A DNA stretch of 64,000 nucleotides from Escherichia coli (GCF_003991155.1 NZ_CP031295.1), one strand, 5' to 3'; positions 11,335 through 50,160 are shown, counted from the first letter of the stretch. Made by a program: numbers and translations. Notes: generated by a model from the sequence alone, not told the origin.

Positions 11335-11400
11335 TTTCATTAACCACCACGAGGCATCCCTATGTCTAGTCCACATCAGGATAGCCTCTTACCGCGCTTT
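11335..11400 (-). ncRNA. sok: putative Sok/FlmB antisense RNA of the hok/mok module
   Basis: inferred by position: antisense to the mok start/hok leader; exact ends not determined. Confidence 0.35.
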
Positions 11401-11574
11401 GCGCAAGGAGAAGAAGGCCATGAAACTACCACGAAGTTCCCTTGTCTGGTGTGTGTTGATCGTGTGTCTCACACTGTTGATATTCACTTATCTGACACGA
11501 AAATCGCTGTGCGAGATTCGTTACAGAGACGGACACAGGGAGGTGGCGGCTTTCATGGCTTACGAATCCGGTAA
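11362..11574 (+). CDS. mok: Mok (modulation of killing), overlapping reading frame of the hok module
   Basis: 70 aa ORF in a different frame, covering almost all of hok. Confidence 0.7.
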
Positions 11575-11578
11575 GTAG
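11420..11578 (+). CDS. hok: Hok/FlmA family type I toxin (52 aa)
   Basis: [52 protein letters not shown]: single transmembrane helix plus conserved C-terminus of Hok; below the ORF-track size cut-off, found by reading the sequence. Confidence 0.85.
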
Positions 11579-11585
11579 CAACCTG

Positions 11586-11610
11586 GAGGCGGGCGCAGGC
11601 CCGCCTTTTC
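11586..11610 (+). terminator. rho-independent terminator after hok
   Basis: GC hairpin ggcgggcgcaggcccgcc followed by TTTT. Confidence 0.6.
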
Positions 11611-12124
11611 AGGACTGATGCTGGTCTGACTACTGAAGCGCCTTTATAAAGGGGCTGCTGGTTCGCCGGTAGCCCCTTTCTCCTTGCTGATGTTGTACGG
11701 GCATGAACAACCTGACTTCAGGAAGGTCGTTTCCCTTCAGGAACGGGGATGAACGCGCGCCTGCGGCGCCCGTTCTTTTCCCCCGCCTTCTCTGGTTATG
11801 GCCTGTCAGAAATCACATCACCTTCCCTGTGATTATTCTCTTTTTCTTCCTGCTCTGATTCTGACTACTGCAGTGTTGTCCTGTCTGCCGGGCGTACCTT
11901 CGGCTCCCGGCTGCCTGGCGGCATCCGGTCGTCAGGCCCGACTCCGACAGGCAGCTGCTGGCGCACCTGCCAGTCTCCGCCGAACCCGCTGGCGCGGTTT
12001 CGGGCTGTCGCTACGGTCCGATGCGTGAAAACCCCTGGCTTGCAGCGACCGTTCCGGTCGCGCCGCCTCTGTCGCGCCGTGACCTGCGCTCCCGGCATCC
12101 CGGCAAAAGGCGCCGGGATGTAAG

Positions 12125-12478
12125 GCGCAACGCCGTTTCGCAAACCGCGCTTCACGTCGTTGCGGCGGGTCCCTGCCCGTTGTTGTGTCCGGTGCCATTC
12201 ACCAGTTTAAGCCCCTGTCGCCGGGGGCATAGACAGCCACAACCGTCTCCGCCAGTCCAGGGGTGAAATGCACATCCCGCAAAACTTTTTGCCCAGAAGC
12301 AGGCAAAAACTTTTGCGGTCTGCCCCCGGACAGTCGTTTCCGGCCGTGGCAGTGATGCCCCATGCGGCGAAGGTTCTCAAACAGGTGATGGTGAATACCG
12401 GAGGGAACAAAAGGCAGGTCCCCGCAAAACGTCAAAACCGCGGCTCCCGAAACTCAACAGATGATGGGGGCTGAAAAC
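12125..12478 (+). promoter_or_regulatory. Frpo/ssi-like leading-region element, copy 2
   Basis: ~90% identical direct repeat of 8500-8860, directly upstream of the 95-aa ORF; lacks ~20 bp of the distal palindrome arm. Confidence 0.55.
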
Positions 12479-12498
12479 CAGAGAGAGGAGAAAGCAGG

Positions 12499-12786
12499 AT
12501 GAGTACCCGAAATATCCACGTTAACACCGCGTCGTACACGCTTCTTGTTGCCGGGAAGAAAAAAAACACCGGGGAAGAGTGGGACGTCCTGGAATTCAGC
12601 AGCCTGACTGAGCTGAAAAAATATCGCAAAAGCCACCCGGAAAAGATGGCCTTCAGTTATAGCTACGCGCTCAGTCAGGGTGTGGATAAGCAGTTCCGCC
12701 ATATCAACATTGCGGAAGCCGATCACTTCAAACAGTTCCTGCGTCAGATTAAGCGTGCCGGCCTCGATATCCGGGCGATCTGCTGA
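12499..12786 (+). CDS. hypothetical leading-region protein (95 aa)
   Basis: ORF with RBS GGAGAGGAG, directly downstream of the second Frpo-like element; no motif recognised. Confidence 0.5.
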   Translation: MSTRNIHVNTASYTLLVAGKKKNTGEEWDVLEFSSLTELKKYRKSHPEKMAFSYSYALSQGVDKQFRHINIAEADHFKQFLRQIKRAGLDIRAIC

Positions 12787-12903
12787 CCGGATGTGATGAA
12801 TATCCCTCCTGATTGTTGCAATCTTGTTAATGGAGATCGGGGGGATGATATTAAGCGGAAAAATTTTTTATTAAATTTATTCTTTCATAAAGGAGTAGCT
12901 GTT

Positions 12904-13725
12904 ATGCGATTAGCTTCCCGTTTTGGTCGGTATAATTCCATCCGCCGTGAACGTCCTTTAACGGATGATGAATTAATGCAGTTCGTGCCTTCGGTATTTT
13001 CCGGTGATAAACATGAGTCCCGGAGTGAACGTTATACGTATATTCCAACAATCAATATCATCAATAAGTTACGTGATGAAGGTTTCCAGCCATTCTTTGC
13101 CTGTCAGAGTCGGATTCGTGATTTGGGACGTCGCGAATACAGTAAACATATGTTACGTCTTCGCAGGGAAGGGCATATTAACGGACAGGAAGTTCCTGAA
13201 ATTATCCTGCTTAATTCACATGATGGTTCATCCAGTTATCAGATGATCCCCGGAATTTTTCGTTTTGTCTGCACAAATGGCCTGGTGTGCGGAAATAATT
13301 TTGGCGAAATCCGCGTTCCACATAAAGGTGATATTGTCGGGCAGGTTATCGAGGGAGCGTATGAAGTGCTCGGTGTCTTTGATAAGGTCACTGATAATAT
13401 GGAGGCGATGAAAGAAATTCATCTTAACAGTGACGAGCAACATTTATTTGGCAGAGCTGCACTGATGGTCAGGTATGAAGATGAAAATAAAACGCCAGTG
13501 ACACCTGAACAGATAATTACTCCCCGTCGTCGGGAAGACAAACAGAACGATCTCTGGACAACCTGGCAGCGGGTTCAGGAGAATATGATAAAAGGTGGAT
13601 TATCGGGGCGAAGTGCCTCCGGGAAAAATACCAGGACAAGAGCCATTACAGGTATTGATGGTGATATAAGAATCAACAAGGCGTTATGGGTGATTGCCGA
13701 ACAGTTCAGAAAGTGGAAGTCATGA
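12904..13725 (+). CDS. orf273-like leading-region protein
   Basis: 273 aa from MRLASRFGRY... with RBS AAAGGAG; size and position match F orf273; the ORF-track 5' extension rejected for lack of RBS. Confidence 0.7.
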   Translation: MRLASRFGRYNSIRRERPLTDDELMQFVPSVFSGDKHESRSERYTYIPTINIINKLRDEGFQPFFACQSRIRDLGRREYSKHMLRLRREGHINGQEVPEIILLNSHDGSSSYQMIPGIFRFVCTNGLVCGNNFGEIRVPHKGDIVGQVIEGAYEVLGVFDKVTDNMEAMKEIHLNSDEQHLFGRAALMVRYEDENKTPVTPEQIITPRRREDKQNDLWTTWQRVQENMIKGGLSGRSASGKNTRTRAITGIDGDIRINKALWVIAEQFRKWKS

Positions 13726-13778
13726 TAATATAAGTAAAGCCCCGAAAAAATTTTCGGGGCTTTACTTATATTATCATT
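13723..13778. terminator. long palindromic hairpin between convergent orf273 and orf169 (bidirectional terminator)
   Basis: perfect inverted repeat atgataatataagtaaagccccgaaaa / ttttcggggctttacttatattatcat. Confidence 0.6.
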
Positions 13779-14531: not shown

Positions 14532-14589
14532 TTTTCCACCTCTGGTGACTTTATCCGTAAATAATTTAACCCACTCCACAAAAAGGCTC

Positions 14590-14930: not shown

Positions 14931-14944
14931 AAAGGTAATCTCTA

Positions 14945-15328: not shown

Positions 15329-15436
15329 AAGAAATTTGACTTCGTTCAAATATCAGAGTTTTTATGATTTAAAAAGGTGACAGTACGAAAGATAATTAGT
15401 ATATTAATTACGTGGTTAATGCCACGTTAAAATTTG

Positions 15437-15515
15437 AATTTGAAAATCGCCGATGCAGGGAGTTCTCTCCTCCCTGCATCGACTGTCCATAGAATCCTTT
15501 GTGAGGAGGTTCCTA
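15437..15515 (-). ncRNA. finP: putative FinP antisense RNA
   Basis: inferred by position antisense to the traJ 5' UTR, which has stem-loops (ccgatgcagggag...ctccctgcatcg); ends not determined. Confidence 0.5.
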
Positions 15516-16204
15516 TGTATCCGATGGATCGTATTCAACAAAAACATGCTCGTCAAATAGATCTGCTGGAAAATCTGACGGCAGTTATTCAGGATTATCC
15601 AAATCCAGCCTGTATCAGGGACGAAACTGGAAAATTTATTTTTTGCAATACGCTGTTTCATGAGTCATTTCTTACACAAGATCAAAGTGCTGAAAAATGG
15701 CTTCTGTCGCAGAGAGATTTTTGTGAATTGATCTCTGTCACAGAGATGGAAGCATACAGGAATGAGCATACGCATCTTAATCTTGTAGAGGATGTTTTTA
15801 TTCAGAACAGATTCTGGACAATATCTGTCCAGTCATTTCTTAATGGACACAGAAATATTATTCTGTGGCAATTTTATGATGCTGCTCATGTTCGTCATAA
15901 AGACAGTTATAATCAAAAAACGATTGTCAGTGATGATATCAGAAATATAATCAGAAGAATGAGTGATGATTCTTCTGTATCATCATATGTAAATGATGTC
16001 TTTTACTTATATAGCACCGGAATCAGTCATAATGCTATAGCAAGAATATTAAATATATCCATCTCCACATCAAAGAAACACGCATCTCTGATATGCGACT
16101 ACTTCTCTGTTTCTAATAAAGATGAGTTAATTATCTTACTCTACAATAAAAAGTTTATTTATTATTTATACGAGAAGGCTATGTGTATCATAAATACGCG
16201 TTAA
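15515..16204 (+). CDS. traJ: TraJ, transfer operon activator
   Basis: 229 aa from MYPMDRIQQKH...; ORF-track upstream extension rejected. Confidence 0.9.
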   Translation: MYPMDRIQQKHARQIDLLENLTAVIQDYPNPACIRDETGKFIFCNTLFHESFLTQDQSAEKWLLSQRDFCELISVTEMEAYRNEHTHLNLVEDVFIQNRFWTISVQSFLNGHRNIILWQFYDAAHVRHKDSYNQKTIVSDDIRNIIRRMSDDSSVSSYVNDVFYLYSTGISHNAIARILNISISTSKKHASLICDYFSVSNKDELIILLYNKKFIYYLYEKAMCIINTR

Positions 16205-16698: not shown

Positions 16699-16730
16699 TT
16701 TTATTCATTTATCCGAAATTGAGGTAACTT

Positions 16731-22199: not shown

Positions 22200-24784
22200 G
22201 TGAATAACCCACTTGAGGCCGTCACTCAGGCGGTTAACTCCCTCGTCACAGCACTGAAACTGCCTGACGAATCCGCAAAGGCCAATGAAGTTCTGGGCGA
22301 AATGAGCTTCCCGCAGTTCAGCCGTCTGCTGCCGTACCGTGATTACAACCAGGAATCCGGTCTGTTCATGAATGACACCACGATGGGCTTTATGCTGGAA
22401 GCCATCCCCATCAATGGGGCGAATGAGTCCATTGTGGAGGCCCTCGATCACATGCTGCGCACCAAACTGCCGCGCGGTATTCCGTTGTGTATCCATCTGA
22501 TGTCCAGTCAGCTGGTTGGTGACAGGATTGAATACGGGCTGCGTGAGTTCTCTGGTCAGGTGAACAGGCTGAACGGTTTAACGCCATTACCCGGGCCTAT
22601 TATATGAAAGCGGCAGCGACACAGTTTCCGCTGCCGGAGGATGAATCTGCCCGACCCTGCGCCATTACCGGTGTTTATCTCGTACTGTTCTCCTCGAAGA
22701 AAAAAGCCGGGCCGACATTCTGGAAATGGAAAACCGGTGAAAATCATCCGGGCGTCGTTACAGGGGCCAGTATCACCACACAGACGGTGGATGCACAGGC
22801 CTTTATCGATATTGTCGGGGAGATGATTAACCATAACCCGGACTCCTGTACCCGAAAAGACGTCAGCTGGACCCGTATTCTGATCTGAATTATCAGTGTG
22901 TGGAGGACAGTTTTGATCTGAAAGTCCGGGCTGATTACCTGACGCTGGGCCTGCGTGAGAACGGCAGGAACAGCACGGCCCGCATCCTGAATTTCCATCT
23001 GGCCCGTAACCCGGAAATCGCCTTCCTGTGGAACATGGCCGACAACTACAGCAACCTGCTGAACCCGGAACTGTCCATCTCCTGTCCGTTCATCCTGACG
23101 CTGACTCTGGTGGTGGAAGACCGGTGAAACCCACAGCGAAGCCAACCTGAAGTACATGGACTCGAGAAAAGTCGAAGACCTCCTATGCCAAATGGTTTCC
23201 GTCCGTGGAGAAAGAGGCGAAGGAGTGGGGAACTGCGTCAGCGGCTGGGCTCCGGTCAGTCCTCTGTCGTGTCCTACTTCCTCAACATCACAGCATTCTG
23301 CAAGGACAATAATGAAACGGCGCTGGAAGTGGAGCAGGACATCCTGAACAGCTTCCGTAAAACGGTTTTGAGCTGATTTCACCGCGCTTTAACCACATGC
23401 GCAATTTCCTGACCTGCCTTCCCTTTATGGCCGGGAAAGGGCTGTTTAAACAGCTGAAAGAGGCCGGTGTGGTTCAGCGCGCAGAGAGCTTTAATGTGGC
23501 CAACCTGATGCCGTTAGTGGCGGATAACCCCGACACCGGCAGGTCTGCTGGCACCCACCTACCGTAACCAGCTGGCGTTTATCGATATTTTCTTCCGGGG
23601 ATGAATAACACCAACTACAACATGGCGGTCTGTGGCACCTCCGGCCGGTAAAACCGGGCTGATACAGCCACTTATCCGCAGCGTGCTGGACTCCGGGGCT
23701 TTGCCGTGGTGTTTGACATGGGGATGGATATAAGTCCCTGTGTGAGAACATGGGCGGGTGTATCTGGACGGTGAAACCCTGCGTTTTAACCCGTTTGCGA
23801 ACATCACCGATATTGACCAGTCAGCGGAGCGTGTCCGTGACCAGTTGTCGGTGATGGCCAGCCCCAACGGTAACCGGATGAAGTGCATGAAGGTCTGCTG
23901 CTGCAGGCGGTCAGGCCTCTCTGGCTAAAAAGAACACAGGCGCGCATCGATGATGGTGGATTTCCTGAAAACGCCCGTGATAACGACCAGTATGCGAGTC
24001 ACCGACCATCCGCAGCCGTCTGGATGAAATGATTGTCCTGCTGGATCATATACGCCGGCGGCACTTACGGCCAGTATTTTAACTCTGATGAGCCGTCCCT
24101 GCGGGATGACGCAAAAATGGTGGTGCTGGAGCTGGGCGGACTGGAAGACCGTCCGTCACTGCTGGTTGCGGTGATGTTCTCCCTGATTATCTACATCGAG
24201 AACAGGATGTACCGCACGCCGCGTAACCTCAAGAAACTGAACGTTATTGATGAAGGCTGGCGTCTGCTGGACTTCAAAAATCACAAGGTCGGTGAATTTA
24301 TTGAGAAAGGCTACCGTACGGCCCGCCGTCATACCGGTGCCTATATCACCATCACACAGAACATCGTCGACTTTGACTCTGATAAGGCCTCCAGTGCTGC
24401 CCGCGCGGCATGGGGTAACTCCTCCTACAAAATTATCCTCAAACAGAGTGCGAAGGAGTTCGCGAAATACAACCAGCTGTATCCGGACCAGTTCCTGCCA
24501 CTGCAGCGTGACATGATTGGTAAGTTCGGTGCGGCCAAAGATCAGTGGTTCAGTTCCTGCTGCAGGTGGAAAACCATTCCCCGCACCGTCTGTTTGTGGA
24601 CCCGTTAAGCCGCGCCATGTACAGCTCTGACGGCCCGGATTTTGAGTTTGTGCAGCAGAAGCGTAAAGAGGGGCTGAGTATTCATGAGGCGGTATGGCAG
24701 CTGGCGTGGAAGAAGTCAGGGCCGGAGATGGCTTCGCTGGAAGCCCGGCTGGAAGAACATGAGAAATACAGGAGTGTGGCATGA
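22200..24784 (+). pseudogene. traC: traC (T4SS ATPase) disrupted by multiple frameshifts
   Basis: N-terminal 120 aa intact (22200-22560), then the TraC peptide continues through many short pieces in changing frames (e.g. 22900-23127, 23185-23376, 24033-24608, 24545-24784); overall length fits traC. Confidence 0.8.
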
Positions 24785-25162
24785 GTTCAACGCAGAAACC
24801 CGCCGACGTCACGGCAGAACAACGCATCCACTGGTGGTGGATGGTGCCGGATGCCCGGCAATGGTGTTACTGAACGCAGCCGTCAGTTACGGCATTGTCA
24901 GACTGAACGCACCGGTGACTGTCGCCTTCAACATGAAACAGACCGTGGATGCGTTTTTGACAGCGCCAGTCAGAAACAACTGTCAGAAGCACAGTCAAAA
25001 GCCCTTTCAGCGCGTTTAACACGGCACTGGAAGCCAGCCTGCAGGCGTGGCAGCAGAAACACCACGCGGTCATTCTGGTGTCGCCTGCTGTGGTACAGGG
25101 GCACCGGATATCACCGGGAAATCCAGCAGGATATTGCCCGGCGAATGAGGGCGGAACCATGA
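24781..25162 (+). pseudogene. trbI: trbI disrupted by frameshifts
   Basis: starts MSSTQKPADVTAE... at 24781; frame lost repeatedly; C-terminal ...IARRMRAEP readable in another frame. Confidence 0.65.
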
Positions 25163-25777
25163 GATGCCGGGGCTGATTGCCCTGCTGATATGGGGCAGAG
25201 GCCGCCGCCGATCTTGGTACCTGGGGCGATCTGTGGCCGGTAAAGGAGCCGGACATGCTGACGGTGATCATGCAGCGCCTGACGGCACTGGAGCAGTCCG
25301 GTGAGATGGGCCGGAAAATGGATGCCTTTAAGGAGCGGGTGATCCGCAACAGTCTGCGGCCCCTGCCGTGCCCGGTATCGGACGCACGGAGAAATACGGC
25401 AGCCGGTTGTTTGACCCGTCCGTCAGACTGGCTGCGGATATCCGGGATAACGAAGGGCGGGTGTTTGCCCGTCAGGGTGAAGTGATGAATCCGCTGCAGT
25501 ATGTTCCTTTAACCAGACGCTGTATTTCATCAATGGCGATGATCCGGCGCAGGTGGCCCGATGAAACGCCAGACGCCGCCCACACTGGAGAGCAAAATTA
25601 TCCTCGTGCAGGGCAGTATCCGGAGATGCAGAAAGCGCTGGACAGCCGTATTTACTTTGACCAGAACGGTGTGCTCTGCCAGCGCCTCGGCATTGATCAG
25701 GTCCCGGCACGGGTGCGCCGTTCCCGGCGATCGCTTCCTGAAGGTGGAATTTATTCCGGCAGGAGGGCAGAAAATGA
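25159..25777 (+). pseudogene. traW: traW disrupted by frameshifts
   Basis: MRCRGLIALLIWGQ... start at 25159; TraW-like pieces appear in several frames (25255-25485, 25368-25937). Confidence 0.65.
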
Positions 25778-26758
25778 AGCGAGGCCTGTGGCTGCTGATG
25801 TTCTTCCTTTCGCCGGTCATGTCCCTGCGGCGTCTGCGGATTCTGCCTGTGAGGGGCGTTTTGTAAACCCGATCACGGATATCTGCTGGAGCTGTATTTT
25901 CCCGCCTCGCTGGGCAGTATCAAAGTCAGTCAGGTAAGGTCCCCGACACGGCGAACCCGTCGATGCCCATTCAGATTTGTCCGGCACCGCCGCCGCTGTT
26001 CAGGCGTATCGGGCTGGCCATTGGTTACTGGGAGCCGATGGCGCTGACGGACGTCACCCGGTCACCGGGATGCATGGTTAACTGGGCTTCAGCCTGCCGG
26101 CTTTGGTAAAACGGCACAGGAACGGCGAAAAGGATGAGAAGCAGGTGAACGGGCGTTCTATCACGTTCACTGGTACAAATACCCGCTGACGTACTGGCTG
26201 AACATCATCACATCGCTGGGCTGTCTGGAAGGTGGTGACCTGGATATCGCTTATCTTTCTGAAATTGACCCCACCTGGACGGACAGCAGCCTGACCACCA
26301 TTCTCAATCCGGAAGCTGTCATCTTTGCCAATCCGATAGCACAGGGGGCCTGTGCAGCAGATGCCATTGCCAGCGCCTTTAATATGCCTCTCGATGTTCT
26401 GTTCTGGTGTGCCGGTTCGCAGGGCAGTATGTACCCGTTCAATGGCTGGGTGAGTAATGAGTCCAGTCCGTTGCAGTCCTCCCTGCTGGTCAGTGAACGC
26501 ATGGCGTTCAAGCTGCACCGTCAGGGCATGATTATGGAAACCATCGGGAAAAATAACGCCGTCTGTAATGAATATCCGTCCCCAATCCTGCCCAAAGAAC
26601 GCTGGCGTTACCAGATGGTGAATATGTACCCGGACAGCAGACAGTGCCACCCGTTCGGGCGCAGTGTGACCCGCTGGGAAACCGGGAAAAATCCGCCCAA
26701 TACAAAGAAAAACTTCGGCTACCTGATGTGGCGTAAACGTAACTGTGTCTTCCTGTGA
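25774..26758 (+). pseudogene. traU: traU disrupted by frameshifts (last 124 codons intact)
   Basis: MKRGLWLLMF... start at 25774; frame lost by ~25900 and regained by 26384 (ORF 26384-26758 is the TraU C-terminus). Confidence 0.7.
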
Positions 26759-39387: not shown

Positions 39388-42300
39388 TGATGAGTATCGC
39401 GCAGGTCAGATCGGCCGGAAGTGCCGGTAACTATTATACCGACAAGGATAATTACTATGTGCTGGGCAGCATGGGAGAACGCTGGGCCGGCAGGGGGGCT
39501 GAACAGCTGGGACTGCAGGGCAGTGTCGATAAGGATGTTTTTACCCGTCTTCTGGAGGGAAGGCTGCCGGACGGAGCGGATCTAAGCCGCATGCAGGATG
39601 GCAGTAATAAGCATCGTCCCGGCTACGACCTGACCTTCTCCGCCCCCAAAAGTGTCTCCATGATGGCCATGTTAGGTGGCGATAAGCGCCTGATTGATGC
39701 ACATAACCAGGCCGTGGACTTTGCTGTTCGTCAGGTGGAGGCGCTGGCCTCCACACGGGTTATGACGGACGGACAGTCAGAAACGGTGCTGACCGGTAAT
39801 CTGGTGATGGCACTGTTTAACCACGACACCAGTCGCGATCAGGAACCACAGCTACACACGCATACGGTGGTGGCTAATGTCACGCAGCATAACGGCGAAT
39901 GGAAGACACTGAGCAGTGACAAAGTGGGGAAAACGGGGTTCATTGAGAATGTGTACGCTAATCAGATTGCCTTTGGCAGGCTCTACCGGGAAAAACTGAA
40001 AGAGCAGGTTGAGGCGCTGGGCTATGAAACCGAAGTGGTGGGTAAGCACGGTATGTGGGAGATGCCGGGCGTACCGGTGGAGGCCTTTTCCGGACGCTCA
40101 CAGGCTATCCGGGAGGCCGTCGGGGAAGATGCCTCGCTGAAATCCCGGGATGTGGCGGCACTGGATACGCGAAAATCCAAACAGCACGTCGATCCTGAAG
40201 TCAGAATGGCTGAATGGATGCAGACGCTGAAGGAAACCGGGTTCGACATCCGGGCATATCGTGACGCGGCGGATCAGCGTGCGGAGACCCGCACGCAGGC
40301 GCCCGGGGCTGTTTCACAGGAGGGGCCGGATGTGCAGCAGGCGGTGACACAGGCGATTGCCGGATTAAGTGAACGAAAAGTGCAGTTTACGTACACGGAC
40401 GTGCTGGCCAGAACGGTCGGTATACTGCCGCCGGAAAATGGTGTGATTGAACGGGCACGCGCCGGTATCGATGAGGCCATCAGTCGTGAGCAGCTTATCC
40501 CCCTCGATCGTGAGAAGGGGCTGTTCACATCAGGAATTCATGTGCTCGATGAGCTGTCCGTCCGGGCACTCAGTCGTGACATCATGAAACAGAACCGGGT
40601 GACCGTACATCCGGAGAAAAGTGTCCCCCGGACGGCTGGTTACAGCGATGCGGTCAGTGTTCTGGCACAGGACCGTCCGTCGCTGGCCATTGTGTCCGGG
40701 CAGGGCGGTGCAGCCGGGCAGCGTGAGCGGGTGGCTGAACTGGTCATGATGGCCCGGGAGCAGGGGCGGGAAGTGCAGATTATCGCTGCTGACCGTCGCT
40801 CGCAGATGAACCTGAAGCAGGATGAACGGCTGTCCGGTGAGCTGATAACCGGACGTCGTCAGCTGCTGGAAGGCATGGCTTTCACGCCGGGCAGTACCGT
40901 TATCGTTGACCAGGGCGAAAAACTCTCCCTGAAAGAGACATTAACCCTGCTGGACGGTGCCGCACGTCATAACGTACAGGTCCTGATAACCGACAGTGGG
41001 CAGCGAACCGGTACAGGCAGTGCGCTGATGGCCATGAAGGATGCCGGGGTGAACTCATATCGCTGGCAGGGGGGAGAACAGCGACCGGCCACCATCATCA
41101 GTGAACCGGACCGTAATGTCCGCTATGCCCGGCTGGCCGGAGATTTTGCGGCCAGCGTGAAAGCCGGAGAAGAGAGCGTGGCACAGGTCAGCGGAGTACG
41201 GGAACAGGCCATACTGACACAGGCCATTCGCAGTGAGCTGAAAACACAGGGCGTGCTCGGACACCCGGAGGTAACCATGACCGCCCTGTCACCGGTCTGG
41301 CTGGACAGCCGGAGCCGTTACCTGCGGGATATGTACCGCCCGGGGATGGTGATGGAGCAGTGGAACCCGGAGACACGCAGTCATGACCGCTATGTGATAG
41401 ACCGGGTGACGGCGCAGAGTCACAGCCTGACCCTGCGGGATGCGCAGGGTGAAACGCAGGTGGTGCGTATTTCTTCTCTGGACAGCAGCTGGTCGCTGTT
41501 CCGGCCGGAGAAAATGCCGGTGGCAGACGGCGAGCGTCTGAGGGTGACAGGGAAAATTCCCGGACTCCGCGTCTCCGGCGGTGACCGCCTGCAGGTGACA
41601 TCCGTCAGTGAAGATGCGATGACGGTTGTTGTGCCGGGACGTGCTGAACCGGCCTCCCTGCCTGTGGCTGATTCACCGTTCACGGCACTGAAGCTGGAGA
41701 ACGGCTGGGTGGAAACGCCCGGGCATTCCGTCAGCGACAGTGCGACGGTTTTTGCCTCCGTCACACAGATGGCAATGGACAACGCCACCCTGAACGGTCT
41801 GGCCCGCAGCGGTCGTGATGTCCGGCTGTATTCATCGCTGGATGAAACCCGTACTGCGGAAAAACTTGCCCGCCATCCCTCCTTTACGGTGGTTTCTGAG
41901 CAGATAAAGGCGCGTGCCGGTGAGATATTGCTGGAAACCGCTATCAGTCTGCAGAAAGCAGGGCTTCACACGCCGGCACAGCAGGCCATTCATCTGGCCC
42001 TTCCTGTGCTGGAAAGTAAAAACCTGGCCTTCAGCATGGTGGACCTGCTGACAGAGGCGAAGTCGTTTGCTGCAGAAGGAACCAGTTTTACTGACCTGGG
42101 AGGGGAAATCAATGCGCAGATAAAACGCGGTGATTTACTGTATGTGGATGTGGCAAAAGGCTATGGCACAGGCCTGCTGGTTTCCCGTGCGTCGTATGAG
42201 GCTGAAAAAAGCATTCTTCGCCATATTCTCGAAGGTAAGGAGGCGGTCACGCCGCTGATGGAGAGAGTACCTGGCGAACTCATGGAGAAACTGACATCAG

Positions 42301-44657
42301 GACAGCGCGCCGCCACCCGCATGATACTGGAAACGTCCGACCGTTTCACGGTGGTGCAGGGCTATGCCGGTGTGGGGAAGACCACACAGTTCCGGGCGGT
42401 GATGTCAGCCGTGAACATGCTGCCGGAGAGTGGGCGTCCCCGTGTCGTGGGGCTGGGTCCCACGCACCGCGCGGTCGGGGAGATGCGCAGCGCCGGCGTG
42501 GATGCACAGACACTGGCGTCATTTCTGCATGACACGCAGCTGCAGCAGCGCAGCGGAGAAACACCGGATTTCAGCAACACGCTGTTCCTGCTCGATGAGA
42601 GCTCAATGGTGGGCAATACCGACATGGCACGGGCATACGCCCTGATTGCGGCCGGTGGTGGTCGTGCCGTGGCCAGCGGTGACACGGACCAGCTGCAGGC
42701 CATCGCGCCCGGTCAGCCTTTCCGTCTCCAGCAGACGCGCAGTGCTGCCGATGTGGCTATCATGAAAGAGATTGTGCGTCAGACGCCGGAACTGCGGGAG
42801 GCGGTATACAGCCTGATTAACCGGGATGTGGAAAGGGCATTGTCCGGGCTTGAGAGTGTGAAACCGTCTCAGGTGCCTCGTCAGGAGGGCGCATGGGCAC
42901 CGGAGCACTCTGTGACGGAGTTCAGTCACAGCCAGGAAGCGAAACTGGCAGAAGCGCAGCAGAAGGCGATGCTGAAAGGCGAGGCTTTCCCGGATGTCCC
43001 CATGACACTGTATGAAGCCATTGTCCGCGACTATACCGGCAGAACACCGGAAGCACGGGAGCAGACGCTGATTGTCACGCACCTGAATGAGGACCGGCGC
43101 GTACTGAACAGCATGATTCATGATGCACGGGAAAAGGCCGGTGAGCTGGGGAAAGAGCAGGTCATGGTGCCTGTCCTGAACACAGCGAATATACGCGACG
43201 GAGAGCTGCGTCGTCTCTCCACCTGGGAGACACATCGGGACGCACTTGTCCTGGTGGATAATGTGTATCACCGGATTGCCGGTATCAGTAAGGATGACGG
43301 GCTGATAACCCTGCAGGATGCGGAAGGTAACACGCGGCTGATTTCGCCCCGGGAGGCGGTGGCTGAAGGCGTCACACTGTACACCCCGGACACCATCCGG
43401 GTAGGGGCCGGTGACCGGATGCGCTTCACGAAGAGTGACCGGGAGCGTGGTTATGTGGCCAACAGCGTCTGGACGGTGACAGCGGTTTCCGGTGACAGTG
43501 TCACGCTGTCGGGCAGACAGCAGACCCGGGTGATTCGCCCCGCCCAGGAGCGGGCAGAGCAACATATTGACCTGGCCTATGCCATCACCGCTCACGGTGC
43601 GCAGGGGGCAAGTGAAACCTTTGCCATCGCGCTTGAAGGTACGGAAGGCAGCCGGAAACTGATGGCTGGCTTTGAGTCAGCCTACGTGGCCCTGTCGCGT
43701 ATGAAGCAGCATGTGCAGGTGTACACCGATAACCGTCAGGGCTGGACGGATGCCATTAACAATGCCGTACAGAAAGGAACAGCCCACGATGTGTTTGAAC
43801 CGAAACCGGACCGGGAGGTCATGAATGCAGAGCGGCTGTTCAGTACGGCGCGGGAGCTGCGGGACGTGGCGGCAGGGCGTGCCGTTCTTCGTCAGGCGGG
43901 GCTTGCCGGGGGAGACAGTCCTGCACGGTTTATTGCTCCGGGACGTAAATATCCACAGCCGTATGTGGCACTGCCGGCGTTTGACCGTAACGGCAAGTCT
44001 GCCGGTATCTGGCTGAACCCGCTGACCACGGATGACGGAAACGGGCTGCGGGGATTCAGTGGTGAAGGCCGTGTGAAAGGCAGCGGGGATGCGCAGTTCG
44101 TGGCCCTGCAGGGCAGCCGTAACGGCGAGAGCCTGCTGGCTGATAATATGCAGGATGGTGTCCGGATTGCCCGTGATAACCCCGACAGCGGTGTGGTGGT
44201 GAGAATCGCCGGTGAAGGTCGTCCGTGGAATCCCGGTGCCATCACCGGTGGCCGCGTGTGGGGGGATATCCCGGACAACAGCGTCCAGCCGGGAGCCGGA
44301 AATGGCGAGCCGGTCACGGCAGAGGTACTGGCACAGCGGCAGGCTGAAGAGGCCATCCGCCGTGAAACGGTACGCCGCGCAGATGAAATTGTCCGTAAAA
44401 TGGCAGAGAACAAACCTGACCTGCCGGACAGCAAAACAGAGCAGGCTGTCAGGGAGATTGCCGGGCAGGAGCGTGACCGGTCTGCCATATCTGAACGGGA
44501 AGCCGCGCTGCCGGAGAGTGTGCTGCGTGAATCACAACGGGAGCGGGAAGCTGTCAGGGAAATTGCCCGGGAAAATCTGCTGCAGGAGCGTCTGCAGCAG
44601 ATGGAACGGGATATGGTTCGTGACCTGCAGAAAGAGAAAACCCTGGGCGGAGACTGA
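39387..44657 (+). CDS. traI: TraI relaxase-helicase
   Basis: 1756 aa; N-terminal relaxase with catalytic tyrosines (..GNYYTDKDNYYVLG..) and HTH..H motif, central and C-terminal helicase domains (GYAGVGKT Walker A). Confidence 0.95.
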   Translation: MMSIAQVRSAGSAGNYYTDKDNYYVLGSMGERWAGRGAEQLGLQGSVDKDVFTRLLEGRLPDGADLSRMQDGSNKHRPGYDLTFSAPKSVSMMAMLGGDKRLIDAHNQAVDFAVRQVEALASTRVMTDGQSETVLTGNLVMALFNHDTSRDQEPQLHTHTVVANVTQHNGEWKTLSSDKVGKTGFIENVYANQIAFGRLYREKLKEQVEALGYETEVVGKHGMWEMPGVPVEAFSGRSQAIREAVGEDASLKSRDVAALDTRKSKQHVDPEVRMAEWMQTLKETGFDIRAYRDAADQRAETRTQAPGAVSQEGPDVQQAVTQAIAGLSERKVQFTYTDVLARTVGILPPENGVIERARAGIDEAISREQLIPLDREKGLFTSGIHVLDELSVRALSRDIMKQNRVTVHPEKSVPRTAGYSDAVSVLAQDRPSLAIVSGQGGAAGQRERVAELVMMAREQGREVQIIAADRRSQMNLKQDERLSGELITGRRQLLEGMAFTPGSTVIVDQGEKLSLKETLTLLDGAARHNVQVLITDSGQRTGTGSALMAMKDAGVNSYRWQGGEQRPATIISEPDRNVRYARLAGDFAASVKAGEESVAQVSGVREQAILTQAIRSELKTQGVLGHPEVTMTALSPVWLDSRSRYLRDMYRPGMVMEQWNPETRSHDRYVIDRVTAQSHSLTLRDAQGETQVVRISSLDSSWSLFRPEKMPVADGERLRVTGKIPGLRVSGGDRLQVTSVSEDAMTVVVPGRAEPASLPVADSPFTALKLENGWVETPGHSVSDSATVFASVTQMAMDNATLNGLARSGRDVRLYSSLDETRTAEKLARHPSFTVVSEQIKARAGEILLETAISLQKAGLHTPAQQAIHLALPVLESKNLAFSMVDLLTEAKSFAAEGTSFTDLGGEINAQIKRGDLLYVDVAKGYGTGLLVSRASYEAEKSILRHILEGKEAVTPLMERVPGELMEKLTSGQRAATRMILETSDRFTVVQGYAGVGKTTQFRAVMSAVNMLPESGRPRVVGLGPTHRAVGEMRSAGVDAQTLASFLHDTQLQQRSGETPDFSNTLFLLDESSMVGNTDMARAYALIAAGGGRAVASGDTDQLQAIAPGQPFRLQQTRSAADVAIMKEIVRQTPELREAVYSLINRDVERALSGLESVKPSQVPRQEGAWAPEHSVTEFSHSQEAKLAEAQQKAMLKGEAFPDVPMTLYEAIVRDYTGRTPEAREQTLIVTHLNEDRRVLNSMIHDAREKAGELGKEQVMVPVLNTANIRDGELRRLSTWETHRDALVLVDNVYHRIAGISKDDGLITLQDAEGNTRLISPREAVAEGVTLYTPDTIRVGAGDRMRFTKSDRERGYVANSVWTVTAVSGDSVTLSGRQQTRVIRPAQERAEQHIDLAYAITAHGAQGASETFAIALEGTEGSRKLMAGFESAYVALSRMKQHVQVYTDNRQGWTDAINNAVQKGTAHDVFEPKPDREVMNAERLFSTARELRDVAAGRAVLRQAGLAGGDSPARFIAPGRKYPQPYVALPAFDRNGKSAGIWLNPLTTDDGNGLRGFSGEGRVKGSGDAQFVALQGSRNGESLLADNMQDGVRIARDNPDSGVVVRIAGEGRPWNPGAITGGRVWGDIPDNSVQPGAGNGEPVTAEVLAQRQAEEAIRRETVRRADEIVRKMAENKPDLPDSKTEQAVREIAGQERDRSAISEREAALPESVLRESQREREAVREIARENLLQERLQQMERDMVRDLQKEKTLGGD

Positions 44658-44676
44658 TACAGGAAGACAAACGCTG

Positions 44677-45420
44677 ATGACAACGGATAACACGAACACA
44701 CGTAACGATTCACTGGCTGCCCGGACCGATACCTGGTTGCAGTCGTTGCTGGTCTGGTCACCCGGACAGCGGGATATCATCAAAACGGTGGCACTGGTGC
44801 TGATGGTACTGGACCATGCAAACCGCATTCTGCATCTGGACCAGACGTGGATGTTTCTGGCCGGGCGTGGGGCCTTTCCGTTGTTTGCCCTTGTGTGGGG
44901 ACTGAATCTGTCCCGTCATGCGCATATCCAGCAGGTGGCCATTAACCGGCTGTGGGGATGGGCAGTGATTGCTCAGTTCGCATATTATCTGGCCGACTTT
45001 CCCTGGTATGAGGGGAATATCCTGTTTGCCTTTGCAGTTGCGGCTCAGGTGCTGACATGGTGTGAAACGCGCAGTGGGTGGCGTACTGCAGCGGCCATAC
45101 TCCTGATGGCACTGTGGGGGCCTTTGTCCGGCACCAGTTACGGCATTGCCGGGTTGCTGATGCTGGCAGTCAGCCACCGGCTGTACCGGGCGGAAGACAG
45201 AGCGGAACGTCTGGCGCTGGTCGCCTGCCTGCTGGCTGTTATTCCGGCGCTTAATCTTGCCACCAGTGATGCCGCGGCGGTGGCCGGCCTTGTGATGACG
45301 GTGCTGACTGTTGGCCTGGTGTCCTGTGCAGGGAAATCATTACCCCGTTTCTGGCCCGGAGACTTTTTCCCGACGTTCTATGCCTGTCATCTGGCTGTGC
45401 TGGGCGTTCTGGCGCTGTGA
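44677..45420 (+). CDS. traX: TraX pilin N-acetylase
   Basis: 247 aa polytopic membrane protein from MTTDNTNTRNDSL...; 5' extension of the track ORF into traI rejected. Confidence 0.85.
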   Translation: MTTDNTNTRNDSLAARTDTWLQSLLVWSPGQRDIIKTVALVLMVLDHANRILHLDQTWMFLAGRGAFPLFALVWGLNLSRHAHIQQVAINRLWGWAVIAQFAYYLADFPWYEGNILFAFAVAAQVLTWCETRSGWRTAAAILLMALWGPLSGTSYGIAGLLMLAVSHRLYRAEDRAERLALVACLLAVIPALNLATSDAAAVAGLVMTVLTVGLVSCAGKSLPRFWPGDFFPTFYACHLAVLGVLAL

Positions 45421-45474
45421 CGGGTGTGGTATCTTTGGCCGCAAGAGGATGATTCGTCAGAGGCAGAACACAGC

Positions 45475-46035
45475 ATGACAGAGCAGAAGCGACCGGTACT
45501 GACACTGAAGCGGAAGACAGAAGGGGAGACGCTTGTCCGCAGCCGGAAAACCATCATCAATGTCACCACGCCACCAAAGTGGAAGGTGAAAAAGCAGAAG
45601 CTGGCCGAGAAAGCAGCCCGGGAAGCAGAGCTGGCGGCAAAAAAAGCGCAGGCCAGACAGGCGCTGTCCATTTATCTGAATCTGCCCACGCTGGATGATG
45701 CCGTGAACACCCTGAAGCCCTGGTGGCCGGGATTATTTGACGGTGACACGCCCCGGCTTCTGGCCTGCGGTATCCGGGACGTGTTACTGGAAGACGTGGC
45801 GCAGCGGAATATCCCGCTCTCGCATAAAAAACTGCGCAGGGCGCTGAAGGCCATCACCCGTTCAGAAAGCTATCTGTGTGCCATGAAAGCCGGTGCCTGC
45901 CGGTATGACACGGAAGGGTATGTGACGGAGCATATTTCTCAGGAGGAGGAAGCGTATGCGGCAGAGCGTCTGGATAAAATCCGCCGCCAGAACCGGATAA
46001 AGGCAGAACTTCAGGCCGTGCTTGATGAGAAATAA
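45475..46035 (+). CDS. finO: FinO fertility-inhibition RNA chaperone (intact)
   Basis: 186 aa from [14 protein letters not shown]...; basic N-terminus; not interrupted by an IS, unlike F as I recall it. Confidence 0.9.
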
Positions 46036-46169
46036 AAAAAAGCCTCCATCAGAGAGAGGAGGCAGGGAAATAAGGCTTAAAAGGAAATAACTTCCGTACC
46101 CGAAAGGAAGCCAGTCCACTGAATTATTTACCACAATAATACTGACGACTAAAAGGGAGGGGCAGAAAA

Positions 46170-46382
46170 ATGAATGGATTCAGAAACAGTTCACGGAACG
46201 GTCAGGTCTGGCGTTACCAGCGTGCCGGCGGGCGGGCCGTTATTCTGGAGGTCAGTGGACGCTGGATGGAAGCGGCAGAAGCATGGCGACGGGCTGCCTG
46301 TGTTACGCCCCGGACAGACTGGCAGCAGTTTGCCCAAAAAAGGGCTGAACACTGCCACCGGCGCTGCCGGGGAAGGGGGTAA
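46170..46382 (+). CDS. hypothetical protein (70 aa, Cys/His-rich C-terminus)
   Basis: ORF with strong RBS AAGGGAGGGG 8 bp upstream; no family recognised; an overlapping 87-aa ORF in another frame (46174-46437) is the alternative. Confidence 0.35.
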   Translation: MNGFRNSSRNGQVWRYQRAGGRAVILEVSGRWMEAAEAWRRAACVTPRTDWQQFAQKRAEHCHRRCRGRG

Positions 46383-46771
46383 CGAAAAAAGCAGCCTTCA
46401 TTACACCAGAAGTCAGAAGGCTGAAAGGAGTTTATGAGATTTGCTTTTTTTAGTTTCATCTTCATACCTTATTGGGTGTATTAAAAACAGTAGGCTGCCA
46501 AAGTTTTAAACAAGTTTCAATTCTCCATGACTGCTCAGCATCAGCCAGAGGGAATTCCCATTCTGGACCAGCGGGAGCATACGAATAATAATTTACGGGT
46601 TTCCCCGCTCCCGGCGTTTTTGTAACAAAAACAGGCAAATGGGGGTAATAGTCAGCAACAGGGAATGTGGTATTATCGCGGCGGGTGTCTGAGCCTTTCT
46701 GGTTCAGGCAAGACGCAGGTACCAGAAATGCGAAGACCCCACTCGTTAATCCATTAACTCGTGAGGTCTGC

Positions 46772-46978
46772 ATGAAGTACCTTAACACTACTGATTGTAG
46801 CCTCTTCTTTGCAGAGAGGTCAAAGTTTATGACGAAATATGCCCTTATCGGGTTGCTCGCCGTGTGCGCCACTGTGTTGTGTTTTTCACTGATATTCAGG
46901 GAACGGTTATGTGAGCTGAATATTCACAGAGGAAATACAGTGGTGCAGGTAACTCTGGCCTACGAAGCACGGAAGTAA
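46772..46978 (+). CDS. srnB: SrnB/PndA-type Hok-family type I toxin
   Basis: 68 aa MKYLNTTDCSLFFAERSKFMTKYALIGLLAVCATVLCFSLIFRERLCELNIHRGNTVVQVTLAYEARK; antisense RNA expected on the opposite strand around 46700-46780 (not delimited). Confidence 0.8.
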   Translation: MKYLNTTDCSLFFAERSKFMTKYALIGLLAVCATVLCFSLIFRERLCELNIHRGNTVVQVTLAYEARK

Positions 46979-46986
46979 GCTGCCGG

Positions 46987-47010
46987 GCGGGGACGGAAGT
47001 CCCCGCTTTC
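46987..47010 (+). terminator. rho-independent terminator after srnB
   Basis: cggggacggaagtccccg hairpin followed by CTTTCC. Confidence 0.5.
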
Positions 47011-47245
47011 CGGAAGTGCGAGGTATTTCAGGGGCAGACACCCTATATACCAGAAACAGCCGGTCCCCTGGCTAAGGCATTTCCAGCTTTTCAGTCATTT
47101 CATTATCAAAATCACATTAAACGGTCGTAATCAGACATGATTTGTGCGCCAACACAGATCATCGTCACAACTTTCAAGTCGCTGATTTCAAAAAACTGTA
47201 GTATTCTCTGCGAAACGATCCCTGTTTGAGAATTGAGGAGGCGAG

Positions 47246-47503
47246 ATGTCGCAGAAAGAAAATGCAGTGACTTCCTCATCAGGCACCAAGCGTACATACC
47301 GGAAAGGTAACCCTGTTCCGGCTAGAGAGAGGCAAAGAGCTTCTCTGGCTCGCAGAAGCAACACTCATAAGGCTTTTCATGCGGTTATTCAGGCCCGGTT
47401 AAAAGACAGGCTGAGTGAACTGGCGGATGAGGAAGGTATTACTCAGGCGCAGATGCTTGAAAAACTGATTGAATCAGAGCTGAAACGCAGAGCGACTTCG
47501 TAA
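47246..47503 (+). CDS. repA2: RepA2/CopB replication copy-number repressor (IncFII)
   Basis: 85 aa basic protein in the canonical position upstream of copA/tap/repA1; C-terminal ...[19 protein letters not shown] matches the CopB family. Confidence 0.85.
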
Positions 47504-47589
47504 ATATTCACATTCTTGCTTATCTCAGGAGTGAGTGGTAGATTACTGATCGTTTAAGGAATTTTGTGGCTGGCCACGCCGTAAGGTGG

Positions 47590-47690
47590 CAGGGAACTGG
47601 TTCTGATGTGGATTTACAGGAGCCAGGAAAGTGAAAACCCCGATAATCTTCTTCAAGTTTGGCGACTAGAAAGATTATCGGGGCCCCATA
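47590..47690 (-). ncRNA. copA: putative CopA antisense RNA
   Basis: inferred by position in the repA1 leader; contains an inverted repeat ccccgataatcttc...gaagattatcgggg that could form the major stem-loop; ends not determined. Confidence 0.45.
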
Positions 47691-47734
47691 AAACCACATA
47701 GCCAACAATTCAGCTATGTGGGGAGTATAGTTAT

Positions 47735-47809
47735 ATGCCCGGAAAAATTCAAGACATCTTTCTGTGCTCACTCCTTCTGTGCATTGTAAGTGCAGGATGG
47801 TGTGACTGA
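47735..47809 (+). CDS. repA6: Tap/RepA6 leader peptide (translationally coupled to repA1)
   Basis: 24-codon [27 protein letters not shown] whose TGA overlaps the GTG start of repA1. Confidence 0.7.
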
Positions 47810-48659
47810 TCTTCAACAAACGTATTACCGCCAGGTAAAGAACCCGAATCCGGTGTTTACACCCCGTGAAGGTGCCGGAACGCTGAAGTTCTGCGAAAAA
47901 CTGATGGAAAAGGCGGTGGGCTTCACTTCCCGTTTTGATTTCGCCATTCATGTGGCGCATGCCCGTTCGCGTGGTCTGCGTCGACGCATGCCACCGGTAC
48001 TGCGTCGCCGGGCCATTGATGCGCTGCTGCAGGGGCTGTGTTTTCACTATGACCCGCTGGCCAACCGCGTCCAGTGCTCCATCACCACACTGGCCATTGA
48101 GTGCGGACTGGCGACGGAGTCTGCTGCTGGAACACTCTCCATCACCCGAGCCACTCGTGCCCTGACATTCCTGTCAGAGCTGGGACTGATTACCTACCAG
48201 ACGGAATATGACCCGCTTATTGGCTGCTATATTCCGACCGACATCACGTTCACACCGGCGCTGTTTGCTGCTCTCGATATCTCAGAAGAGGCGGTGGCTT
48301 CCGCACGCCGCAGCCGTGTGGAATGGGAAAACAGACAGCGCAAAAAGCAGGGGCTGGATACCCTGGGTATGGATGAGCTGATAGCGAAAGCCTGGCGTTT
48401 TGTGCGTGAGCGTTTCCGCAGTTACCAGACAGAGCTTAAGTCCCGTGGAATAAAACGTGCCCGTGCGCGTCGTGATGCGAACAGGGAACGTCAGGATATC
48501 GTCACCCTGGTGAAACGGCAGCTGACGCGTGAAATCTCGGAAGGGCGCTTCTCTGCCTGTCGTGAGGCGGTAAAACGTGAAGTGGAGCGTCGTGTGAAGG
48601 AGCGCATGATTCTGTCACGTAACCGCAATTACAGCCGGCTGGCCACCGCTTCCCCCTGA
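47802..48659 (+). CDS. repA1: RepA1 replication initiator (IncFII)
   Basis: 285 aa from GTG ([24 protein letters not shown]...); the track ORF starts 4 codons earlier at 47790. Confidence 0.9.
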
Positions 48660-48829
48660 AAGTGACCTCCTCAGAATAATCCGGCCTGCGCCGGAGGAAT
48701 CCGCACGTCTGAAGCCCGCCAGTACAGAAAAAACAGCACCACATACAAAAAACAACCTCACCATCCACCTTCTGGAGCATCCGGTTCCCCCTGTTTTTAA
48801 TACAAAATACGCCTCAGCGACGGGGAATT

Positions 48830-49020
48830 TTGCTTATCCACATTAAACTGCAAGGGACTTCCCCATAAGGTTACAACCGTTCATGTCATAAAGCGCCAGC
48901 CGCCAGTCTTACAGGGTGCAATGTATCTTTTAAACACCTGTTTATATCTCCTTTAAACTACTTAATTACATTCATTTAAAAAGAAAACCTGTTCACTGCC
49001 TGTCCTGTGGACAGGCAGAT
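48830..49020 (+). other. putative oriR (IncFII vegetative origin)
   Basis: DnaA box TTATCCACA ~170 bp downstream of repA1, followed by an AT-rich segment. Confidence 0.6.
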
Positions 49021-49215
49021 ATGCGGCGCCCACCGCAAGCAGCGGGCCCCGACCGGAGCCACTTTAGTTACAACACACAAAGACAACCTCCGGAAAAACC
49101 CCGGTCCAGCGTAGAACCGAAACCACAAAGCCCCTCCCTCATAACTGAAAAGCGAGGCCGCCCCCGCCCGAAGGGCGGGAACAACATCGCTTTTAATTAT
49201 GAATGTTGTAACTAA
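49021..49215 (+). CDS. small ORF in the RepA4 position (doubtful)
   Basis: 64 aa Pro/Arg-rich ORF downstream of the origin; low-complexity, may be non-coding. Confidence 0.3.
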   Translation: MRRPPQAAGPDRSHFSYNTQRQPPEKPRSSVEPKPQSPSLITEKRGRPRPKGGNNIAFNYECCN

Positions 49216-49624
49216 GAATCCTCATCGCTGTCAGTCTTCTGGCTGGAAGTATTGAGTACACGCTCGTAAGCGGCCCTCACGGCCCGCTAACGCGGAGATA
49301 CGCCCCGACTTCGGGTAAACCCTCGTCGGGACCACTCCGACCGCGCACAGAAGCTCTGTTGTGGCTGAAAGCGGATATGGCTTAGCAGGACTGAGGATGG
49401 GTAAGGTGATATCTATCAATCCGTACCGGCTTACGCCGGGCTTCGGCGGTTTTACTCCGGTATCATATGCAACAACGGAGTACCGCCTTCCATGCCGCTG
49501 ACGCGGCATCAGAATAATACAAACAGCATTTAATGCATTTGCAAAAGTGTGAGTAATAAAGACTTGTTAAGTGGTCGTTTCAGGGATATCGTTAAGACTT
49601 GTTAAACAGTCTCAAAGGTGCGTT

Positions 49625-49876
49625 ATGCCTAACATCATTCTGTCTGACACCAGTGCAAGTGTCAGTGAACTGAAAAAAAATCCTATGGCTACAGTCAGTG
49701 CCGGAGATGGTTACCCTGTCGCCATTCTTAACCGGAATCAGCCGGCATTCTACTGTGTGCCTGCTGAACTGTATGAAAGGATGCTTGATGCTCTGGATGA
49801 CCAGGAACTGGTGAAACTGGTTACTGAACGCAGCAATCAGCCACTGCATGATGTGGACCTAGACAGTTATTTATGA
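49625..49876 (+). CDS. Phd/YefM-family antitoxin
   Basis: 83 aa from MPNIILSDTSASVSELKKNPMATV...; overlaps the downstream toxin start by 4 bp; direct repeats agacttgttaa in the promoter. Confidence 0.8.
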   Translation: MPNIILSDTSASVSELKKNPMATVSAGDGYPVAILNRNQPAFYCVPAELYERMLDALDDQELVKLVTERSNQPLHDVDLDSYL

Positions 49877-50160
49877 CTTATACGGTAAAATTCAGGGATG
49901 ATGCGCTCAAGGAATGGCTGAAACTGGATAAGACCATTCAACAACAGTTTGTGAAAAAACTAAAAAAATGCAGCGAAAATCCTCATATACCGTCAGCAAA
50001 ACTAAGAGGGCTAAAGGATTGCTACAAAATTAAACTACGTGCATCGGGATTTCGTCTGGTTTATCAGGTGATTGACGATATGTTAATTATTGCGGTTGTT
50101 GCGGTAGGAAAACGAGAACGTAGTAACGTTTATAATCTCGCCAGTGAGAGAATGAGATAG
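49873..50160 (+). CDS. RelE/ParE-family toxin
   Basis: 95 aa MTYTVKFRDDALKEWLKLDKTIQQQFVKKLKK...; classic antitoxin-toxin operon arrangement. Confidence 0.8.
   Translation: MTYTVKFRDDALKEWLKLDKTIQQQFVKKLKKCSENPHIPSAKLRGLKDCYKIKLRASGFRLVYQVIDDMLIIAVVAVGKRERSNVYNLASERMR

Follow-up and report, generated by a model that had tools for sequence, protein, structure and literature searches.

The 64,000-nt stretch of Escherichia coli DNA analysed here (NZ_CP031295.1; 'the window' throughout, at its full length) carries three well-known plasmid addiction cassettes, all of them intact: hok/mok/sok in the leading region, after psiB/psiA; srnB/srnC between finO and the RepFIIA-type replicon; and, downstream of repA, a type II toxin-antitoxin (TA) pair of the StbD/StbE type. 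Cassettes of these kinds are ordinary for IncF plasmids and are known from thousands of them. The window is almost certainly best explained as part of a mosaic IncF plasmid with three independent, intact post-segregational killing cassettes, each characterised elsewhere, and nothing was found in the sequence that contradicts this explanation. The evidence lies in the anatomy of the loci, namely their open reading frames (ORFs), family membership, identity with plasmids R1 and F, promoters, RNA folds and catalytic residues.

An earlier note on this DNA had reported three addiction modules between 11362 and 50160, and an ORF check found each of them at the coordinates given there, with complete reading frames. 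The span itself is not one feature but takes in three distinct loci and, between them, the entire tra region; the surroundings that the note had assigned to each (leading region, adjoining the RepFIIA-type replicon, downstream of repA) were correct. Both of the Hok-family type I toxins that it had named match Pfam HOK_GEF above the gathering score, and there are only two in the six frames: a Hok profile scan of the whole window returned two ORFs (E 1.6e-29 and 9.6e-26), with the next best at 0.08. A Pfam scan of 87 further ORFs (55–229 aa, outside the tra region) found no other toxin or antitoxin family, and the two scans together detected no fourth TA module within the window. A weak RHH_5 match (E 2.5e-4) also came out of the Pfam scan; a check of ten candidate ORFs did not find the one responsible, and the match probably belongs to CopB, a ribbon-helix-helix protein.

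The cassettes are widespread. Exact copies of each of the six proteins were found on 1000 or more public contigs, under the names Hok, FlmC homolog/Mok, SrnB, StbD and RelE/StbE. At the DNA level, the hok cassette matched at least 5000 plasmid records (2593 at ≥99% identity), the srnB cassette 2894 (535 at ≥99%) and the stbDE-type cassette 505 (236 at ≥99%), and all three occur together on NZ_CP117035, NZ_OY754831 and NZ_CP133423. Over 501 nt, the hok locus matches NZ_CP117035 at 100% identity, and window positions 44000–52000 are 100% identical to many plasmids. On pAPEC-1 and pAPEC-O1-ColBM, srnB and hok/sok flank the tra region, an arrangement described as 'not unusual' for ColV-type plasmids (PMC2626276). 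The earlier note had judged such redundancy typical of large IncF plasmids and expected rather than novel, with which both the plasmid counts and the ColV-type descriptions agree. The discovery value is small, the cassettes being textbook or routinely annotated and identical or near-identical to alleles found on sequenced plasmids by the thousand; the result is of practical use for annotation and for strategies of plasmid curing. To rid cells of this plasmid, Sok, SrnC and the StbD-type antitoxin would probably have to be supplied in trans, as has been done with related plasmids (PMC11537010).

Two type I loci with a common architecture

In the hok/mok/sok locus (11211–11643), the gene for the 52-aa Hok toxin (11420..11578, +) is overlapped in another frame by mok (modulator of killing; 11362..11574, +; 70 aa), and both products are letter-for-letter the R1 proteins. 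Hok is an exact match to HOK_ECOLX, with Pfam HOK_GEF (PF01848) at E 1.2e-21 and 76.5 bits (gathering score 22) and NF007279 at 126.4 bits (cut-off 73). Mok is an exact match to UniProt FLMC2_ECOLX, with Pfam DUF5431 at 140 bits and NCBIfam NF010277, 'modulator of post-segregation killing', at 151.6 bits (cut-off 110). The hok promoter candidate, TGGTCA-18-TATGAT (11211..11240, +; promoter scan, 9/12 consensus matches), implies a transcription start near 11247, and the match to Rfam RF01794 begins at 11246 and spans 11246–11422 at 88.9 bits (gathering score 59). With the start placed at 11247, bases G4/C5/T6, A70/G71/C72 and the mok Shine–Dalgarno (SD) bases G105/A106 of the R1 hok mRNA, in the numbering of PMC9841398, coincide with those of the window. 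The full-length hok mRNA, complete with 5′ tac and 3′ fbi elements, would run from 11247 to 11643 (+), as judged from the fold and the Rfam match. This 397-nt stretch folds at −175.9 kcal/mol (z = −8.1; none of 100 shuffles as good), and its first 7 nt (GGCGCUU) are paired with nt 390–396 (AAGCGCC), which is the tac/fbi lock of R1.

The sok antisense gene lies on the opposite strand (11306..11406, −), with a predicted RNA from about 11372 to 11306. Its promoter candidate, TTGCGC (11406–11401)-17-TATCCT (11383–11378), was read by eye and agrees with the consensus at 8/12 positions. The Sok stretch of 73 nt gives a single long hairpin with a U-rich tail after it (−29.5 kcal/mol, z = −6.1), and it is antisense to the SD and start codon of mok.

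At the second locus (46649–47043), the srnB promoter candidate TAGTCA-16-TATTAT, with a TG extension (46649..46676, +; promoter scan), implies a start near 46683, which is also the start of the RF01794 match (46683–46841; 94.5 bits, gathering score 59). The srnB mRNA is predicted from its fold and the Rfam match to span 46683..47043 (+); this 361-nt stretch reaches −154 kcal/mol (z = −7.2) and folds back on itself, its 5′ end GGGUGUCUG being paired with its 3′ end CAGACACCC. A 68-aa SrnB ORF (46772..46978, +) opens at a mok-equivalent start, in frame with the toxin, and is 67/68 identical to SRNB_ECOLI of F, with L13F as the sole change; its ATG at 46772 and the GAGG SD are covered by the srnC antisense stretch. 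The last 49 codons of this ORF form the Hok-family toxin core (46829..46978, +), which matches HOK_GEF at E 1.9e-9 and 37.4 bits (gathering score 22) and is 39% identical to Hok over 41 aa, with an LCE motif in both. In RefSeq the annotation is confined to the 49-aa core, WP_001312851.1, on a locally 100% identical plasmid as well as on F; the toxin is therefore identical to that of F. The product of the locus may be either the 68-aa or the 49-aa form, as the sequence alone is compatible with both.

The srnC antisense gene (46722..46823, −) has a strong promoter, TTGACC-18-TACAAT (46823 to 46794; promoter scan, 10/12), and a predicted RNA from about 46787 to 46722; the antisense stretch folds as a hairpin that ends in a U-rich tail (−31.5 kcal/mol, z = −5.2). 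Counted from the −10 region to the 3′ end of the mRNA, 6 substitutions in ~390 nt separate the locus from that of F. Similarity to F (46645–46660 against F ~2745–2760) stops inside the −35 hexamer, and the extended −10 element TGnTATTAT is present in both. The earlier note's title had called this module srnB/pnd-type. It is srnB of F; pnd is ruled out by the F toxin accession, the DNA alignment and the 67/68 identity of the longer ORF to SRNB_ECOLI.

Hok and the SrnB core both belong to the Hok/Gef profile, above its curated threshold, and the two loci have more in common than their toxins. At each, the minimum free energy and centroid folds pair the first 7–9 nt of the mRNA with the last 7–9 nt. 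The end-pairing sequences differ between the hok and srnB mRNAs, and the same end-to-end pairing from different sequences therefore argues for a conserved design rather than chance. The SD and start of an upstream reading frame lie under the antisense RNA at both loci, in a frame other than the toxin's in the case of mok and in the toxin's own in the case of srnB, with predicted translational coupling; both also have a cis-encoded antisense gene with a candidate promoter on the opposite strand, from which an RNA is predicted. The Rfam model RF01794 bears the name 'sok antitoxin', yet it aligns to the sense strand, between the 5′ end of the mRNA and the AUG of hok. Because it follows the toxin-mRNA strand, it marks the hok-family leader and not the antisense RNA, and its matches were not counted as evidence for the antisense RNA itself.

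A type II pair with a RelE/StbE-type toxin

The third module (49625–50160) has the arrangement of a type II operon: the antitoxin gene (49625..49876, +; 83 aa) comes first, the toxin gene (49873..50160, +; 95 aa) follows in the same orientation with a 4-nt ATGA overlap, and direct repeats lie upstream. Judged by its sequence, the toxin is a RelE/StbE mRNA interferase and not a ParE gyrase poison, because it aligns to E. coli RelE without a gap over 94 aa at 55% identity, keeps the RelE residues K52, K54, R61, R81 and Y87 (all identical, as read from the alignments), has E. coli RelE chains, including ribosome-bound RelE, as its only sequence relatives in the PDB (E 3e-30), and scores 36.1 bits against TIGR02385 RelE_StbE (cut-off 27.9). 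Those five residues are reportedly the ones that catalyse A-site mRNA cleavage by RelE, as Neubauer et al. are said to have found in 2009.

The antitoxin (RefSeq WP_001132900.1), which sources name StbD, is probably a YafN-like member of the Phd/YefM superfamily. It matches NCBIfam YafN at E 1.5e-10, under the equivalog cut-off, and an hhalign comparison with a YafN sequence entered by hand gave a probability of 96%; the same comparison with YefM was not significant (E 0.026). Relatives at least 88% identical to it carry precomputed PF02604 matches. It is not RelB, and it shows no ribbon-helix-helix match. The earlier note had described a RelE/Phd-type pair at 49625–50160. A RelE-type toxin with a probable Phd/YefM-superfamily antitoxin does occupy that position, and the RelE half of the label stands as given; the Phd half comes down to sub-threshold hidden Markov model matches together with a strong YafN-like match. 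With that refinement, the note's three family assignments stand.

Upstream of the pair, two perfect copies of the 12-nt direct repeat AAGACTTGTTAA lie at 49559–49570 and 49594–49605, 35 nt apart; the window holds two copies, against 0.16 expected. They bracket a pair of hexamers read by eye, TTGTTA-17-TATCGT (49564–49592; 8/12), so that 49559..49605 (+) is a putative promoter with its operator; the cassette's remoter homologues, at ~90% identity, start with the first repeat (query position 21). We infer that this upstream region would act as an autoregulated promoter/operator at the repeats.

About 75 bp past the toxin stop, a look at the translations gave what resembles a C-terminal transposase fragment of IS3-family type (50235–50399, −), and a Tn3 transposase fragment follows (50457–50927, −), DDE_Tnp_Tn3 having matched one scanned Pfam ORF. 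The type II cassette therefore abuts a junction of mobile-element debris.

Proposed mechanism

Type I and type II dynamics are described here by analogy with the families to which the cassettes belong. As established for the hok family (PMC9841398, PMC4147584), each stable toxin mRNA would be made in a closed form, with the 3′ fbi paired with the 5′ tac, in which it would be neither translated nor bound by antisense RNA, and slow trimming from the 3′ end would then open it. While the plasmid is present, short-lived Sok or SrnC would pair over the ribosome-binding site and the start of the upstream frame (mok, or the ORF at 46772), which would block the coupled translation of the toxin and trigger decay by RNase III. 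In a plasmid-free daughter the antisense RNA would be lost first, and the small membrane toxin would kill the cell. At the type II locus, a labile StbD-type antitoxin would bind the toxin and probably repress its own promoter at the AAGACTTGTTAA repeats; upon plasmid loss the antitoxin would be degraded, leaving the RelE-type toxin to cleave mRNA in the A site of the ribosome. The ends of the RNAs, the function of the operator, the killing and the stabilising effect would likewise follow the pattern of the families. It is plausible that, as the earlier note had put it, the modules 'will strongly stabilise the replicon'.

Weighing the evidence

Several observations weigh against a reading of three intact, stabilising cassettes. 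The promoter scan, with its 9/12 limit, did not report the sok promoter, nor did it report that of stbDE, and a scan for a terminator-like site after the type II toxin gene found none. The antitoxin scores 23.9 bits against Pfam PhdYeFM_antitox (PF02604), below the gathering score of 29.8. Searched against the PDB as a single sequence it gave no match up to E 0.1, and a profile built on 20 sequences had no significant match either (best E 0.1, Annexin A7); the 120 listed antitoxin homologues are all at least 88% identical, too alike for a far-reaching profile. Its AlphaFold model, built from a shallow alignment with rows 88–92% identical, is of low confidence, with a predicted local distance difference test score of 51. 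On the IncI2 plasmid p45, a distinct stbDE allele made no contribution to vertical stability (PMC11878559). An error-rich stretch at 22.5–26.2 kb also means that base-level claims rest on the identity checks made at the three loci.

Frameshifts or missing promoters were what the earlier note had named as grounds for refuting it. No frameshift was found at the loci, and the hok locus and positions 44000–52000 are, as above, 100% identical to public plasmids; the sense promoters of both type I loci and the srnC promoter were found by scan, with those of sok and stbDE seen by eye at 8/12. The error-rich stretch lies in the tra region. Compared with NZ_CP146590, positions 22500–26200 (traC-trbI-traW-traU) contain 54 small gaps (71 gap positions) and 75 mismatches; nearly all the gaps are bases missing from the window, 35 of the 54 fall in homopolymers and several at CCWGG, and there is therefore no long traC or traU ORF. 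The pattern looks like unpolished long-read errors more than real decay of the transfer system, and the three TA loci, which lie elsewhere in the window, are unaffected by it.

That the cassettes are intact and yet bring their main benefit in some other way than vertical stabilisation, through plasmid competition, phage exclusion or, for hok/sok in the leading region, rapid lock-in of a new recipient after conjugative entry, seems unlikely; the molecular mechanism would be unchanged and only its selective role another. The position of hok/sok speaks for such a role, the leading region being the first DNA to enter a recipient, and two partition systems in the window (sopAB, 5358–7504; IncR-type parAB, 60817–62996) lessen the need for killing. 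Phage exclusion would be in keeping with the exclusion of phage T4 by hok/sok that Pecota and Wood reportedly described in 1996. On p45, neither stbDE nor hicAB was needed for vertical stability, and the competitive advantage that stbDE gave was only modest (PMC11878559); the p45 stbDE, however, is another allele, whose genes overlap by 11 nt where those here overlap by 4 nt, and it sits on another backbone. Moreover, hok/sok, srnB and pnd are defined by stabilisation through the killing of plasmid-free segregants (PMC4147584, PMC2626276), and the sequence offers nothing that separates this from other roles. We regard as more speculative still a division of roles set by position, in which the cassettes would not be redundant stabilisers: hok/sok of the leading region would commit the new recipient early after DNA entry, stbDE, beside the replicon, would act mainly in competition with related IncF plasmids or against phage, and the in-frame 68-aa SrnB would be a second, functionally distinct product.

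Decay of one or more cassettes, through loss of promoter function, RNA switching or toxin activity, is very improbable. The sok and stbDE promoters do reach only 8/12 of the consensus, srnB homology to F does break within the −35 hexamer, and another part of the window does have many frameshifts; yet no ORF is truncated, Hok and Mok have exactly the R1 sequences and the srnB toxin exactly that of F, the extended −10 element of srnB depends less on a −35, and the RelE catalytic residues are intact. The recurrence of alleles at ≥99% identity in 2593 (hok), 535 (srnB) and 236 (stbDE) plasmid records points to selection, not decay. Hardly credible at all is the notion that the toxin of the type II pair is a ParE-type DNA gyrase poison in place of a RelE-type ribosome-dependent mRNase. 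It takes its appeal from names: the best Pfam family is called ParE_toxin (PF05016; 59.1 bits against a threshold of 23), a weaker match is to ParE-like_toxin, and the RefSeq entry, WP_000222766.1, is labelled 'RelE/ParE family toxin'. PF05016, however, spans both RelE and ParE, and the ParE reading is ruled out by the RelE-only relatives in the PDB, the TIGR02385 match above its cut-off and the gap-free RelE alignment with its five kept residues.

Plasmid context

The plasmid to which the three cassettes belong is a mosaic IncF plasmid, ColV-like and of FIA/FIB/FIC type, and its closest public relatives, from E. coli, Salmonella and Shigella, are typed IncFIA/FIB/FIC. The aerobactin genes iucD/iutA (325–3885) and an IS1 precede sopAB; then come the leading region with ssb, a DUF905 gene, psiB and psiA (8845–11140), the tra region from traM to traI/traX/finO (14945–46032) and the RepFIIA-type replicon, with copB at 47246–47503, CopA RNA at 47629–47717 (−; Rfam) and repA ending at 48659. 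A resistance/mosaic region at 50.4–63 kb contains Tn3 fragments, blaTEM-1, IS5 and the IncR-type AAA ATPase/ParB pair (parAB, −), as well as a Tn3 resolvase (54124–54714) and an StbA gene adjoining IS5 (~58092–58478). Several kinds of stability function are thus stacked beyond the three TA modules: two partition systems, a resolvase and StbA.

Rfam also placed IncF regulatory RNAs in the window, among them the AS-traI antisense RNA (42236–42312, −) and the traJ 5′ untranslated region with FinP (15410–15521). In the interval from finO to srnB there is a strong match (46279–46462, −; 156 bits) to RF02876 AS-pc02, an antisense RNA first reported on plasmid pHK01; the match overlaps a 70-aa ORF annotated 'ANR family transcriptional regulator'. 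In the leading region, a ParB/RepB/Spo0J-like gene (~9714–9990) is reduced to about its last 220 nt, against 1959 nt in NZ_CP117035, by a deletion of ~1.8 kb between the DUF905 gene and psiB.

Comparison with known systems

The first cassette corresponds to hok/mok/sok of R1 (the parB locus, GenBank X05813), to which flmA/B/C of F is sister. The amino-acid sequences of Hok and Mok are those of R1, the leader agrees at every position checked, and the tac/fbi pairing, the Sok hairpin and the place in the leading region after psiA are all shared; the comparison, made at the protein level and against other public plasmids, found no difference. The second corresponds to srnB/srnC of F (NC_002483, toxin at 2926–3075), with which it shares the 49-aa protein WP_001312851.1, the position between finO and copB/repA, the fold-back design of the mRNA and the antisense promoter; it differs in its six substitutions, in L13F of the N-terminal extension and in the end of homology within the −35 hexamer. 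It is not the pnd locus of R483.

StbD/StbE-type pairs, to which the third cassette belongs, are named after stbDE of the Morganella plasmid R485, and relatives at 88–100% identity occur across Enterobacterales, including Morganella. The Phd/YefM and RelE/ParE pair of pAPEC-O1-ColBM has the same antitoxin accession, WP_001132900.1, which has been used in a curing vector (PMC11537010), while its toxin is listed as WP_000222767.1 and not as the WP_000222766.1 found here. The stbDE of IncI2 p45 is a different allele, with a longer gene overlap. With the toxin of chromosomal relBE of E. coli K-12, the one found here shares 55% identity along the entire protein and the catalytic residues; the antitoxin is not RelB and gives YafN-like and Phd/YefM-type matches. 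The joining of a RelE-type toxin to a YafN/Phd-type antitoxin is a known mixed family pairing.

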